Shown: positions 21,101-36,100, counted from the stretch's first letter. The stretch is DNA of 64,000 nucleotides from Prorocentrum cordatum (GCA_963575745.1 CAUYUJ010000129.1:1-64000), one strand, 5' to 3'. A program made the numbers and translations. Notes: generated by a model from the letters alone, not told the origin.

Positions 21101-24100
21101 AGTGAGCTGCTCGACCTCATCCCAATAAACTTGGGAAGAACTTTGCGCAACCCGACTTGGAGGTGTGCGGGTCAGCTGTGTGGAAGACGGGAGGACCCCC
21201 GCTGGCGGGGCCAGCACCGCCCCCGAACGGTTGCGAACTCCCACGACGCCACGCAGGCGTACTTGGGAGAGCCACCTAGGGGACCCATTCATGTCCGGGT
21301 CCTCGGCCGTTGCTACTGCCCTTCGACCTCCGTGGAGCCCGCTTGGGGGCCACCACGAGTGGAATGAGGGGAAGGCTTGGGTCAGCGTATGTATTGAAGC
21401 CAGGTGCTCCAAACGGGTCTTGGATGATTCCTCGGGCCACCAAACTGGCCAAACGCTCGCTACCCGAGAAAGCCCCTTTCCTTCAAGTCAAGTTCGTGCG
21501 ACTACTCATCCTATCTCTACCTTGGCCTCTGCTCCTACTCCTATCCCTTTCCTCACTCACTTGGTAATGATGCTTTGTCCGCTGCTCAGGTTTGCTCATT
21601 TCTAGGAGGCGGAGGAGGCAGAGGAGGAGGAGGAGGAGGAGGAGGAGGAGGAGGAGGAGGAGGAGGAGGAGGAGGAGGAGGAGGAGGAGGAGGAGGGAGA
21701 GGGTGGGAGGGAGGAGGGACACCATCGAGGACCGCCCGAGGCCGATGGGTAACAAGGGGTGTCCATGGTCGAATGCTTCGCGCGGCGGACGTTGGTCCTT
21801 CGCTCGATCCTCGACCTTCAGAGTTGGGGGCCGCGCGGGCGCGGGGCCGCGGCGTCGGCGGCATTTGGCAGGGGAACCGCTCGCGCGCGCGCCCGGCGCC
21901 CAGTTCGTCGAGGTGGCCATCCCGATGACCGAGGACGGGGGCGGCCGAGGGCGGTCGGCACGGGCTCCCCCTCCCTCCGTCCTCCGTTCGAAGGGAGCAG
22001 CATGGGCGCGGAAGGGGTAGGCGGCCAACCTGCTCCATCACGAGCTGCGTGCGCTGCCGATCCAGTTCCACCTGCGGGCCTTTCTTCCAAGCCATCTTGA
22101 GCATGTTGACGTGCTCTCGAGGTGAAGGCCTCTCCCTCCTCCATCCTCCTTTCGCCCTCCATTTTTTGATTTGTTTTCTTGGGAAGGCCTTACGGCTGGT
22201 GCCGCCGACCCTGAAGGTGGACGATGACCACGACGGCGGCGTCGGCGGCGACGACGACGCTGACGTGGGTCAGAGTCCTCAGTGATGCTTCGTGGGGCCT
22301 CTTCGGAGCGCGCTTGTAGGGGTGTGGGGGGGGGGACAGTTTTGGGGCCTCCTGGGAGCATCTTGGGGGCCTCTTTGGGGGCCTCTTGGGGGTCCCTTCG
22401 GGCCTCCTGGGGGCCTCTCGGGGGCCTCCTGGGGCCTCGTGGGTGCCTCTTGGGAGCCTCCTGGGGCCCCCTGGGAGCTTCTCCTGGCCGAGGGCTTGAA
22501 GTGCTCGTTCGGGCTCCCGTGTGGGCACCCTCTTGGAGCCACTTTGAGGGCCTCGTGGGCCGTCTGTGAGGGCCGTCTTGGGGCCCTCTTCGGTTGGGGC
22601 CGTCTTGGAAGCCTCTTGGGGGCCTCTTGCGCCGATCTTGGTTGCACCTTGGGCCGTCTTGGGGAACCCTACTCTCGAGGCCACGCTCGCCCTCGACCCA
22701 TTCCTCCTCCACCCCCTCGTTTTCTTTTCTCCCCGAGCCTCTTCTGCTCCTCCGTTTGTTCTCCTCCTCCAACCTCCTTCTCCTCATTCCCTTTCTCCCT
22801 CCTTCCTCCTCCACCTCCACCCACCCTTTTCTTCTCCTCCCCCTCCTTTCCTCTCCTCCCCTGAGACGGGTCCGCCAGGAGGAGATCGTCCACGTGCCCA
22901 AGGTCATTCCCCAGGAGCGCATCGTGCAGCAGATGGTCGAGCAGATGGTCGAGGCACAGCGCGTCTCCTCCTCCTCCTCCTTCTCCTCCTCCTCCTCCTC
23001 CTCCTCCTCCTCCTCTCCCTCCTCCTCCTCCTCCTCCTCTTCTGCAGGAAAGGGCACGAGGGAGTCAGCAGAGGGGAAGAGGATGATGATGATGATGATG
23101 ATGATGATGATGATGATGATGATGATGATGATGATGATGATGATGATGATGATGATGATGATGATGATGCTGATTATGATGATGATGCTGATGATGATGA
23201 TGATGATGATGATGATGATGATGATGATGATGCTGCGGTTGCTGCTGCTGATGATGGTGATGCTGTTGATTATAATGGTGCTGCTGCTGATGATGATGTT
23301 GATGGTGATGGTGGTGATGATGATGATGGTGATGGTGATGGTGATGATGGTGATGATGATGATGCTGCTGATGATGATGGCGATGACGATGACGATGAGG
23401 ATGACAGTGATGATGATGATGGTGGTGATGGTGATGCTGCTGCTGATGATGATCATGATGCTGATGAGCATGAGGATGATGAGCATGCTGAGGATCATGA
23501 TGATGCTGACGATGATGAGGAGGTGAAGGAAGATGAGGAGGAGGAGCATGCTAATGATGATGGTGACGACGACGACGGTGTTGTTGTTGTTGTTATTGTT
23601 GCTGTTGCTGTTGGTGTTGTATGTGTTGTTTTCGATGTTGATGTTGTTGTCGTCGTCGTCGTTGTTGTTATTGTTGCTGTTGATGCTGGTGTTGTCGTTG
23701 TTGTTGAATACTCATTTCTAGAGAGTTATTTATTGTTGATGTCCCGAAACGGCTCCGCGCGCTCTCGCCTTGACGCCGGCTACAGTTTCTCTGAAAACGA
23801 GGCTCCTGCTCGAGCGTTAGCTTGAGCCTAAATGTGGGCCCTTGAAGGCCCAGCTACGACAACAACGGCTCCCGCTCGATACTTCCTCACACTTTACCCC
23901 GAGACACCCCGGCCAGAGAGGCCCCCGAACTCAGGAACGGCGCTCTCGCTCGAGATTTCCTCGCAATTCCACCAAATTTGCGGAGGCCCAGCCACGACGA
24001 CAAGGGCTCCTGCTCGATACTTCCTCACTATTTACTCCGAGAGCCCGTGGCCAAGAAGGCCCCCGAACTCAGGAACGGCGCTTTCGCTCGAGACCTCTCG

Positions 24101-33100: not shown

Positions 33101-36100
33101 TCTCTGCTCCTAGCCCCCCTCCTGCTACCCTCTCTCGTGCTCCCTCCTCCTCCCTCCCCCTTGTCCCTTCGTGCCGTCCGTCCTCTCTTCCCCTGCCTTC
33201 GGGGCTGCACGACATACACGTTGCAGTTCAGAAGGATCTACTCCTGAGGGGGCACGTTCAAAGACGAAGGCGGCGGGTAGCGAGGGTTCGGGATATACGC
33301 GTTGACTGATCGGAACGCGAGCAAATGAGAGTGAATAGTTTTAAAACGATTGTTGAATTCTCATTCCAAAACAATAATTATTGTTGACCCCCCTTGCGCG
33401 GTAAACGTTTTCTTTGTTTCTCATTTAACGTGTTTATCACAGGGCTCGCGCCCTGTTCTTTTTTACAAGGGGACGTGGGGTGTCACCAAACTCTGCCCCT
33501 GGCCCACGGTTTGCACGACAACAACGACTCCCGCCTGATATTTCCTCACAATGTATTCCCAAATCGCGCTCTCCCGCGGGAGGTCTTCACAACTTACACT
33601 GGAATCGCGCTCTCGCGTGGGACGTCCTCAAAATTGATTCAGACGCCGCGCCCCCGACACTAAGGAGTCACGCTCTCGCAGTGGATTTCCTCACGGTTTA
33701 TTTGGGAATCTCGCTATTGCTCGATATTTTCTCGCAATTCATGCAGGACGCACGCTTCAGCAACTCGCCTTCTTGACCTTGCCGCCTGGGCCCGCCTTCC
33801 CGACTCGCCCGTTTGAGCTTACCCGCCCGATCTGCTCGTCTGGTTCTGCCACGTGTTCTCTGCTCCTAGCCCCCCTCCTGCTACCCTCTCTCGTGCTCCA
33901 TCATCCTCCCTCCCCCTTGTCTCTTCCTTCCATCCGTCCTTTCTTCCCCCGCCTTAGGAGCAGTACACGTTGCAGGTGAGAAAGATACATACCCCCATGT
34001 GGGGTACGATCGGAGACGAAGAGGGCGGGTATCGAGGGTTTGAGATATACGTGTTGAATGGCACGCGAGCAGATAAGAGTGAACAGTTTTAAAATGATTG
34101 TTGAATTCTGATTTCTACAGAATGATTATTGCTGATCCCTTTTCCTGGTAACCGTCATATGAATGCTTCTCCCGGGGCTCGCACCTTGTTTTTTTGAGGG
34201 AAAGCGAGGTGTCGCCAAACTGCGCCCCTAGCCCCGGGTTTACAACAACCACGGCTCCCGCTTGATAAATCCTCACAATATATTCCTAAATCGCGCTCTC
34301 GCGCGGGACGCCATAACAATTCGTACATGAATCGCTCTCTCGCCTGGGACTCCCTCGCAAATTATTCAGACGCCGCGCCCTCGACACTAAGGAATCACGC
34401 TCTCGCAGTGGATTTCTGTACGATTTATTGGGGAATCGCGCTATCGCTCGAGACTCCCGTGCAATTCATGCAAATCGCACGCTTCAGCAACCCGCTGTTG
34501 TCGGACTGCCATATGTGTGTGTGTGTGTGTGTATGTGCGCGTGTTATACATATAACGGGGGACCGGGTCTGGGGCCCCAGGGCCAAGACCACGACCGCAA
34601 ATGTGGGGCCCGGGGCGCCGGCCCGCCTCTGGGAGGCCTAAAATCGGCCCGGGGAGCCCTCAGACAGCAATCCCTGCGGCGGCCCCGGACGGTCTCGAGA
34701 CACCCCCAAGACGCCGTTCGGGAGCGGAAAAGAGGAGGGTGATGGCTAGGGGGGGGGGTGGATTTCATGGCGCGGGCCATGAGTTTTCCTCAGATTTCAT
34801 GGCGCCTCTTCTTATTTCATTACGCCCCTGGCCCCCCCGCTGGGCCGCGCACATGCCGCCGGTCATGATTTGCACCCCCCCCTCTTGGACACTCCCCTCT
34901 TGGCCGCTCCCAACAAGACGCCGTCCAGGGGTCTCTGACGACGCACGATACATCTTAAACTGACCCGGGGGCCCCCAGGACGCCCCGAGAGGCTTTTAAG
35001 ATGCCGCCCAAGAGCGCCCCGAGAGGGCAAAATCGTTGATTTTCATAGTTTTTTCTATTTTTTTTTTGCATTCTCGCTGTTTCGTGTTTCCGGCGCTAGA
35101 GCACCGCCCAAGAGGCTCCCCAATCCGCTCCAAGACGGCCCAAGAGGTCCCCAGGAGGGCCCCAAGACGGCCCAAGAGAGCCCCGAGATGGCCCCAGAGC
35201 CGCCCAAGACGGCGCAAGAGGGTCCCAAGAAGGCCCCAAGAGGGGCCCAAGAGAGGGAACGCCAACTGAAAAATCAAGCTCTCCGCCCCAAAATGCCCCC
35301 AAGAGGCCCCAAGAGGCCCCCAGGAAGCCCCCAAGAGGCTCCACGAGGCCCCAAGCGGTCGCATGATGCGTTTTAAACTGCCCCGAAGGCTTCCATTTCG
35401 CCCCAAGAGACCTTGAAAATGCCGCCCAAGAGCGTCCCGAGAGGGCAAAATCGTTGATTTGCATTTGTTCTTTCAATGTTTTTTGCGTTCTCGCTGTTTC
35501 GTGTTTCCGGCGCTAGAGCTCCGCTCAAGAGACTCCCAAAACCGCTCCAAGACGGCCCAAGAGGTACCCAGGAGGGCCCCAAGACGGCCCAAGAGAGCCC
35601 CGAGACGGCCCCTGAGCCGCCCAAGACGGCGCAAGAGGGTCCTAAGAAGGCCCCCAAAGGGGCCCAAGAGAGGGAACGCGAACTGAAAAATCAAGCTCCG
35701 CCCCAAGATGCCCCCAAGAGGCCCCAAGAGGCCCCCAGGAAGCCCCCAAGAGGCTCCACGAGGCCCCCAAGAGGCCCCCAAGAGGGCCCCAAGACGGCCC
35801 AAGAGAGCCCCGAGACGGCCCCTGAGCCGCCCAAGACTGCGCAAGAGGGTCCCAAGAACGCCCCAAGAGGGGCCCAAGAGAGGGAACGCCAACTGAAAAA
35901 TCAAGCTCTCCGCCCCAAAATGCCCCCAAGAGGCTCTAAGAGGCCCCAGGAAGTCCCAAGAGGCTCCCAAGAGGCCCCAAGAGGCCCCCAAGAAGCTCAA
36001 AAGAGGCTCCAAGAGGCCCCAAGACGGCACCCAAAGGATTCAAAACTATTTCTAAGAGGCCCCCGAAGACATGCCAAGAAGTTCCCATGACGACTTCAAG

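Follow-up and report, generated by a model that had tools for sequence, protein, structure and literature searches.

What kind of process sets eight partly related DNA units head to tail on one strand, joins them through GTT repeats of very different lengths, and leaves a protein-coding gene inside one of them? This question is raised by an array at 23579-34510 of a 64,000-nucleotide stretch from the dinoflagellate Prorocentrum cordatum (GCA_963575745.1, CAUYUJ010000129.1:1-64000), which was analysed as a whole and is called the window below. Dinoflagellates have very large genomes full of repeats, and little has been described of the mobile elements in them. The answer that we put forward tentatively, as possible and somewhat short of probable, is that the array consists of copies of one plus-sense retroposon family, non-coding and non-autonomous, with a (GUU)n tail, which would integrate by target-primed reverse transcription into (GTT)n tails, and that local duplication, seen in two neighbouring units, also contributed.

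Anatomy of the array

The units are named 0, A, B, C, D, E, F and G from left to right, and all lie on the plus strand. When complete, a unit opens with some 45 nt of AT-rich head (GAATTC...), continues with a body, and closes with a 3′ region, about 130 nt long, whose last letters are ...AAAATGATT and which (GTT)n follows. The units and their tracts, with copy numbers from Tandem Repeats Finder (TRF) where given, are as follows.

23579-23706, plus: degenerate (GTT)n tract 5′ of unit 0 (TRF: 42.7 copies, 74% matches)
23706-24380, plus: unit 0, a subfamily of its own, with an internal 138-bp repeat (x2.9); tail 24381-24671
24672-25660, plus: unit A; tail 25661-26038, 127 GTT copies
26039-27033, plus: unit B, with a mutated 3′ end; one GTT before the next head
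27034-29192, plus: unit C, B-like; head 27034-27100, body 28260-29192; tail ATT + (GTT)4 at 29193-29207
29208-32564, plus: unit D, a separate subfamily; head 29208-29247, left body to 29745/29986, right body from 32346/32363
32565-32662, plus: tail of unit D, (GTT)34, followed by (GCT)4 at 32663-32674
32675-33351, plus: unit E, first ~28 nt of the head missing; one GTT after it
33355-34099, plus: unit F, complete; one GTT after it
34103 to ~34500, plus: unit G, head and ~400 nt, then broken off at (TG)n; 3′ region absent

A preliminary description of the locus, made from the sequence, had counted about eight head-to-tail units of different subfamilies with a shared junction, a very variable GTT tract, and one junction, at 32675, that lacks its GAATTC half. 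All of this stands. Eight units run from 23706 to about 34500 and belong to four subfamilies, the tract after a unit holds 1 to 127 repeats, the spacer between units measures 3 to 381 bp, and (GCT)4 takes the place of the missing half before E. TRF counts 98 GTT copies at 24379-24672, 127 at 25659-26039 and 34 at 32563-32663; the junctions B/C, E/F and F/G have a single GTT, and C/D has ATT with four GTT. At least one GTT is thus found at every unit-to-unit junction, and preserved 3′ ends run directly into (GTT)n in seven of seven cases. The tail is tied to the element, as the only four GTT-type tracts that TRF lists in the window all adjoin units. When the flanks of the window's remaining microsatellites were compared all against all by BLAST, no other tail-bearing family was found beside them.

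The shared motifs are confined to the array. All matches of a 22-nt head core (6 of 6, all plus), a 22-nt 3′ end motif (3 of 3) and a 22-nt subterminal motif (6 of 6) fall within it, and the window's remaining ~53 kb contains none. The 38-nt right half of the junction gives three matches at up to three mismatches (24672, 26039 and 27034), with 0 expected in 100 shuffles. Dyad symmetry between the two ends, as proposed in the preliminary description, was not recovered: when the first 30 nt were set against the reverse-complemented last 30 nt, none of six units beat 95% of 500 shuffles. GAATTC and AATAATTATT, both in the head, are each palindromic by themselves, and a small hairpin stands at the 3′ end. 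T-runs are present in the units, and their flanks are T-rich.

Protein-coding content was surveyed by a Pfam scan of 150 of the 155 open reading frames (ORFs) of at least 110 aa that are not of low complexity (the 5 shortest were left out, and 178 low-complexity ORFs had been removed earlier). No reverse transcriptase, endonuclease, transposase, Rep/helicase, tyrosine recombinase or GIY-YIG domain was matched among these 150 window ORFs, which agrees with the earlier remark that no mobilising enzyme is visible in the array. Rfam gave no match in the window at the gathering score. A search of the array with the limit relaxed to E<=5 added nothing but chance-level microRNA and CrcZ rows, and neither a hammerhead nor any other ribozyme was recognised. 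ARAGORN found no transfer RNA (tRNA) genes.

Subfamilies, local duplication and abundance

The four subfamilies occur in a single orientation in the order 0, A-B-C, D, E-F-G. A, B and C are mutually 94-95% identical (A-B 95.4%), and E, F and G 81-84% (E-F 84%). Identity between groups is 71-80% over aligned columns, and unit 0 is 71-77% identical to other units. Units 0, A-C and E-G therefore form one diverged family with homologous interiors, 71-95% identical and aligning over most of their length. The preliminary view that units share only their ends holds for D alone, which has the head, the last ~17 nt and a C/G hairpin in common with the others and is unrelated in its interior; for the other seven it fails. 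Conservation across subfamilies is higher at the head and in the 3′ region than in the middle, and the 3′ ~130 nt are conserved in six units.

Within the first group, 44 sites are common to A and B against C, compared with 21 for B and C and 16 for A and C. In addition, at 24889/26255 and 24894/26260 A and B carry the minority state of the read pool and C the majority state. These shared sites and states indicate that tandem amplification contributed, and on their sequence A and B look like a local duplicate.

Abundance was judged from Logan contigs, compared with 22500-35500 at 90% likeness. Four runs were used, two labelled organism A (X1 and X15), one labelled organism B (X2) and one labelled organism C (X8); X1 may be the sample from which the window itself derives. 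The metagenome runs X3-X14 and X16-X20, with shares of 0.05-0.43, were left out. Summed contig (word) depth, which is not a copy number, reaches 15,751-25,593 over unit A in X1, 124,209-265,305 over the D flanks (29010-29877), 81,743 over the right flank of D (32048-32481), and 63-76 over the gene interior (30746-31613). X8 gives 42-102 for unit A, 985-1,077 for the D flanks and 2.8-6.6 for the gene interior, and X2 has the same ordering of D flanks, unit A and gene interior. All unit types thus lie far above the gene interior in X1, X2 and X8, under three organism labels, so that the family is not unique to this locus. X15 gives no depth over 30746-31613, on which no weight is placed. Since Logan contigs are strandless and the nature of X15 as an RNA run is a guess, transcription of the units is not readable from them.

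Among the rows listed, which are the tool's selection and anecdotal, D-type contigs are identical to the window at 153 of 153 (X8) and 281 of 283 (X15) positions, and A/B-type contigs differ from it at 7 of 169 and 8 of 176 (X15) and 15 of 141 (X2). D is apparently a young copy of the subfamily with the highest depth.

Unit C is 2.1 kb long because a 77-bp satellite (27232-28136, 11.8 copies) sits inside it. Contigs that join 27092 to 28259 were found in X1 (n=6), X2 (n=5) and X8 (n=2). The satellite itself has the top summed contig depth of the compared region, 171,029-336,222 in X1, and loose contig ends indicate that in other copies a different recurring sequence precedes it.

The extra segment and the gene of unit D

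As described earlier, unit D keeps both ends, the head at 29208-29247 and the 3′ end, around an unrelated interior with a gene (30354-31721). Contigs that join the two flanks identify the gene-bearing part of this interior as an addition. One X15 contig joins 29745 directly to 32363 with 25 other letters between, an X8 contig has a loose end at 29745 with the same letters, and X2 contigs show the joints 29755>32287, 29803>32298 and 29986>32346. Therefore, a gene segment of 2.4-2.6 kb is extra DNA in the window's D copy, and the usual D-type form is about 0.8 kb long, without that segment. It had been proposed that the gene travels as cargo of the element; with gene-free D-type copies in X15 and X2, the loose end in X8 and the low depth over the gene, this is not borne out. 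One X8 contig follows the 3′ flank of the gene to 32257 and continues with 237 letters unlike the window, which hints at a related gene copy in another context. The extra segment contains, in order:

29992-30115: 53-bp repeats
30114-30281: 11/21-bp repeats
30306-30327, plus: spliced-leader-like relic, 26 nt 5′ of the ATG and followed by this 26-nt leader
30354-30698, plus: exon 1 of the gene
30699-30875, plus: intron, 177 nt, GC..AG
30876-31721, plus: exon 2
31791-32035: 12-bp repeats

The relic resembles the dinoflagellate spliced leader, from which its 21 nt at 30307-30327 differ by three mismatches, and it is the window's only match at up to five mismatches. The gene thus has a tag of the retrogene type and yet keeps an intron. 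An in-frame TGA at 30870 falls within this intron, and the stretch that it would encode is missing from most homologues; one homologue (P0020) keeps, at this position, a related stretch that is in frame. Three pairs of arms, 30701-30713/30860-30872, 30725-30742/30825-30842 and 30750-30766/30799-30815, make the intron a nested palindrome, and AAGG flanks it on both sides. As the gene's only intron, it resembles the transposon-like introners, a type of intron reported for dinoflagellates (PMC11453091).

The gene has 27 protein homologues (E 3e-146 to 6e-59). The exon-2 protein (30873-31718) belongs to a conserved family of about 330 aa with these 27 relatives, and its invariant residues include E134, D148 and D206 in exon-2 numbering. 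Neither the product nor its homologues match a Pfam family, and the product has no Atlas match. Its AlphaFold model has a mean predicted local distance difference test (pLDDT) score of 61.5. Foldseek returned no PDB match at E<=0.001, and VIA-align wide returned a best Z of 3.4, with none at Z>=5. Triphosphate-tunnel enzymes recur in weak rows of both structure searches, which may serve as a lead and no more.

The 3′ region and the sense strand

Folded as plus-strand RNA, the consensus of the last ~130 nt of six units reaches -12.76 kcal/mol with four compensated pairs, against -5.95 kcal/mol and none as minus-strand RNA. In the plus-strand structure 91.3% of 138 cells pair, and 29 of the paired cells are G-U, possible on this strand alone. 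The observed pairing measures were reached by 4-7 of 500 shuffles. The 3′ arm of the last hairpin includes the first GTT of the tail (e.g., 34082-34102). Two further features favour the plus strand: the young-looking D has a clean 34-copy tract on its plus-strand 3′ side, and E seems 5′-truncated in the plus sense. The cut in unit G favours the minus strand. The preliminary description had read the units on the minus strand, each with a (CAA)n tail. The balance of evidence tilts towards the plus strand but is not decisive, and if the units are retroposons we consider plus sense considerably the more probable.

How the array may have arisen

For the retroposon that we propose, the AT-rich head is a possible start of transcription. 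The 3′ region, with its final hairpin closing on the first repeat of the (GUU)n tail, would be recognised together with this tail by a reverse transcriptase acting in trans, the source of which could be a stringent-type long interspersed element (LINE) or a Penelope-like element (PLE). Priming would take place on a nicked (AAC)n strand, so that the orientation of new copies would be fixed and their landing sites would be (GTT)n tracts already present, for the most part tails left by earlier copies. The observed range of tail lengths would come from slippage on the repeat and then from ordinary microsatellite dynamics. Serial landings would have built the order 0, A-B-C, D, E-F-G, and local duplication would have added at least A/B.

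The fixed strand of all eight units, the interleaving of four subfamilies of different divergence and the great abundance of the family count for this reading, as do the tail's tie to the element and the conserved 3′ region with its plus-strand fold. The apparently young D lies between the older groups A-C and E-G with GTT on both sides, which duplication of neighbours could not produce, and therefore insertion into GTT tracts is the simplest account of its position. The earlier preference for insertion over tandem amplification is partly supported, D speaking for insertion and the apparent local duplicate A/B for a contribution of amplification. At its left end the array begins in a compound microsatellite, where a (GAT)n tract (23082-23518) runs on into the degenerate (GTT)n tract at 23579-23706. 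Such a start agrees with an initial insertion into a GTT tract of the genome, and 23579-23706 is a candidate for the original target of the array. E, without ~28 nt of its head and with a (GCT)4 filler before it, is like a 5′-truncated insertion.

Several observations weigh against the retroposon. The window ORFs include neither a reverse transcriptase nor an endonuclease. The window showed neither solo copies nor empty sites, nor target duplications, which would be invisible inside a microsatellite, and scans of public contigs were empty: a degenerate head motif and a 27-nt D-type stretch had no match in metagenome or genome contigs, nor a shorter head motif in viral contigs. The minority sites common to A and B and the adjacency of like units are what tandem duplication predicts. 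The cut on the plus-sense 3′ side of unit G finds no explanation in reverse transcription that begins at the tail, and unit B has no tail. The units have no RNA polymerase III (Pol III) head, with no likeness to tRNA, 5S or 7SL, and a conserved head is unnecessary for a retroposon recognised purely at its 3′ end. Single 3′ regions fold no better than shuffles (z -0.40 to +0.42 on the plus strand); the covariation comes from six sequences, three of them 94-95% alike, from which the structure was itself derived. As contig depth does not equal copy number, the argument from abundance is limited.

The array could instead be a satellite-like tandem repeat, shaped without transposition by unequal crossing-over and slippage at GTT tracts, with ends kept alike by concerted evolution and D brought in by recombination with another array or by an unrelated insertion. 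Like units are indeed adjacent (A-B-C and E-F-G), A and B share their 44 sites and two minor states, every copy in the window belongs to one array with none dispersed over the rest, and the window is rich in other satellites and very long trinucleotide tracts. What makes such an origin unlikely is the presence in one array of four subfamilies, 71-80% alike between groups, plus D with its unrelated interior. It also leaves unexplained why the far more abundant D should have the same head, last ~17 nt, GTT tail and orientation, and it does not account for a head and 3′ region that are more conserved than the middle. A-rich short-repeat tails are the commoner kind in elements without long terminal repeats (non-LTR elements), and a retroposon could also be read on the minus strand, with each unit starting at the reverse complement of the ...AAAATGATT end, finishing with the reverse-complemented head and a (CAA)n tail, and landing in (CAA)n tails. 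G, then the most upstream unit, would be a classic 5′-truncated copy, the tract at 23579-23706 would become unit 0's own tail at the end of the array, and A and B would each have long tails. Against these advantages, the minus strand folds worse and lacks compensated pairs, the 29 G-U cells turn into A-C mismatches, E becomes 3′-truncated and loses the part needed for recognition by reverse transcriptase, and the clean 34-repeat tract passes to the old E, the young-looking D being left with just four repeats as its tail. We regard the minus-strand retroposon as quite unlikely.

A mobile element acting at the DNA level is very doubtful, whether as a Helitron/Helentron-like rolling-circle element with read-through multimers and gene capture or as a cassette that a site-specific recombinase mobilises via a circle recombining at the junction. 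It would suit non-coding units that share mainly their ends with D, a gene inside one unit, the short palindromes of the head (GAATTC and AATAATTATT), the small 3′ hairpin, and the T-rich flanks, which recall the T-rich target preference given for Helentron-type HINE/DINE-1 (PMC4067079). Judged by criteria in the same source, the ends on both strands are unlike 5′ TC ... CTRR 3′ with insertion between A and T. Moreover, inverted likeness of the ends is at chance in all six units, Rep/helicase, transposase and tyrosine recombinase are absent among the ORFs, and a gene in one of eight units is unlike a cassette array. The G-U-dependent pairing points to RNA, though G-T pairs in single-stranded DNA are possible. 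Helentron-type elements are a weak rival. Finally, the head and the 3′ region with its (GTT)n tail may act as a vehicle for unrelated DNA. D would then be a gene-shuttling copy, produced by a Penelope-like, intron-retaining retroposition of host genes into new (GTT)n sites that builds cassette-like arrays. The gene in D, with its intron and spliced-leader relic, has the same sense as the element, so that its transcript would run on into the tail module and could be copied along with it. We consider the vehicle reading the least probable of the possibilities discussed here.

Other features of the window

The window is eukaryotic and extremely repeat-rich, with a G+C content of 0.40-0.70 across 2-kb bins and dozens of long trinucleotide tracts. 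Three of its features point by themselves to a dinoflagellate or close alveolate: the spliced-leader-like relic, the GC..AG intron of the gene behind it, and the gene's 27 protein relatives, which lie on short contigs and lack a Pfam family. The very long simple repeats of the window include (GAT)n of 2.8 kb, (TGA)n of 2.0 kb, (AGT)n of 1.3 kb and (TGTA)n of 1.4 kb. These and the other features outside the array are:

7567-7666: assembly gap, a run of 100 N
7667-8975: (AGT)n
11170-13951: (GAT)n
17982-18554, minus: ORF piece matching the metallo-beta-lactamase fold family
36452-37897: (TGTA)n
52883-54882: (TGA)n
56028-56127: assembly gap, a run of 100 N

The ORF piece at 17982-18554 matches PF00753 (E 2.2e-06, 28.2 bits, cut-off 22.7) and is probably an exon of a host gene. 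An 11/21/32-bp unit of the CCCCAAGAGGC type forms dispersed arrays at 22344-22487 (reverse), 30114-30281 and 35100-36180. The second of these sits just 5′ of the gene in unit D, and X2 contig joints connect 35339-35343 with 30114-30253, both within arrays of this type. A minus-strand ORF spans the D/E junction; its region 100-155 gave two candidates in a protein database, none at E<=0.01.

Significance

As it stands, an array of tail-targeting retroposons is an ordinary kind of thing in an under-studied lineage. No description of such a family in dinoflagellates was found in the open-access literature searched. A family of many copies whose head, 3′ region and (GTT)n tail are all defined provides a handle for annotating repeats now classed as 'unknown', and it may account for the origin of some very long trinucleotide tracts. 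Used as a query, the 3′ end could reveal the reverse transcriptase that drives the family. Dinoflagellate retrogenes tagged by spliced-leader remnants have been described (PMC12014239). If transcripts with the tail module can carry genes, the family would be linked to the heavy gene retroposition in dinoflagellates.

Comparison with known systems

Integron cassette arrays also have one orientation and a recurring, partly palindromic junction. The present array differs in its eukaryotic host, the lack of an integrase in the window and the variable-length microsatellite in its junction, and an integron-like cassette array was ruled out, with no recombinase among the 150 ORFs and seven of eight units being non-coding relatives of each other. 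Homogeneous satellite DNA was ruled out by the four subfamilies, 71-95% alike, and the one unit with an unrelated interior. A DNA transposon with terminal inverted repeats, or a miniature element of this kind (MITE), was ruled out by the lack of significant terminal inverted repeats, the single orientation of eight of eight units and the spacers of 3-381 bp. A short interspersed element (SINE) in the strict sense was ruled out, as a tRNA, 5S or 7SL head is lacking (ARAGORN, 0 genes; Rfam, 0 at gathering score). A Helitron was ruled out, as the ends on neither strand fit 5′ TC, 3′ CTRR, a GC-rich hairpin ~11 nt from the 3′ end and insertion between A and T, the features given in PMC4067079. The HINE/DINE-1 elements are portrayed there as high-copy, non-coding elements with microsatellites, short palindromes, T-rich targets and no target duplication, within a superfamily known for gene capture (PMC4067079). 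Helentron/HINE elements are also marked by 12-15 bp subterminal inverted repeats and a 3′ palindrome besides the T-rich target. Unlike them, the array has subterminal inverted repeats at chance level, a microsatellite that is terminal and not internal, and no Rep/helicase among the window ORFs.

Some non-LTR retrotransposons integrate specifically into microsatellites or other repeats and accumulate head to tail, examples being the microsatellite-specific elements of the R1 clade, Dong, Zepp and MoTeR. Many non-LTR elements with a restriction-like endonuclease are reported to target rRNA genes and microsatellites (PMC4640811). The array resembles them in orientation-fixed integration into a simple repeat, which hides target duplications. 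However, these elements are defined by their own reverse transcriptase/endonuclease and a known target, and the target of the array is its own tail.

Among PLEs, Naiad and Chlamys are described as inserting into microsatellites, with non-autonomous forms (e.g., MRC1) in multicopy head-to-tail insertions (PMC8557442). According to the same source, PLEs are frequently 5′-truncated, can retain introns and can retrotranspose intron-containing host genes. The microsatellite bias and the head-to-tail non-autonomous copies are shared with the array, in which D holds an intron-containing gene. Unlike PLEs, the array has no GIY-YIG or reverse transcriptase ORF (window ORFs) and no hammerhead motif (Rfam, E<=5); Naiad and most Chlamys are likewise presented as lacking canonical hammerheads (PMC8557442). 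In PLE tandems a single insertion is partly copied and no long microsatellite separates the copies; furthermore, the array has no inverted 5′ copies.

The eel LINE UnaL2 and its SINE are reported to require a 3′ stem-loop and a short terminal repeat, on which reverse transcription starts and the enzyme slips (PMC1636434), and different non-autonomous families can share a tail (PMC1636434; PMC4176376). The array differs from this type in several ways: its tails reach 127 repeats against about 3, its head is also conserved and is not of the Pol III type, its copies sit in each other's tails, no partner LINE is seen in the window, and the 3′ fold is weakly supported. The likeness to UnaL2/UnaSINE1 and to zebrafish L2 LINEs (PMC1636434; PMC4176376) lies in a conserved 3′ region followed by a short tandem repeat of variable number. 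Indeed, the array has the feature that marks retroposons dependent on stringent-type LINEs, a variable short-repeat tail directly after a conserved 3′ region.

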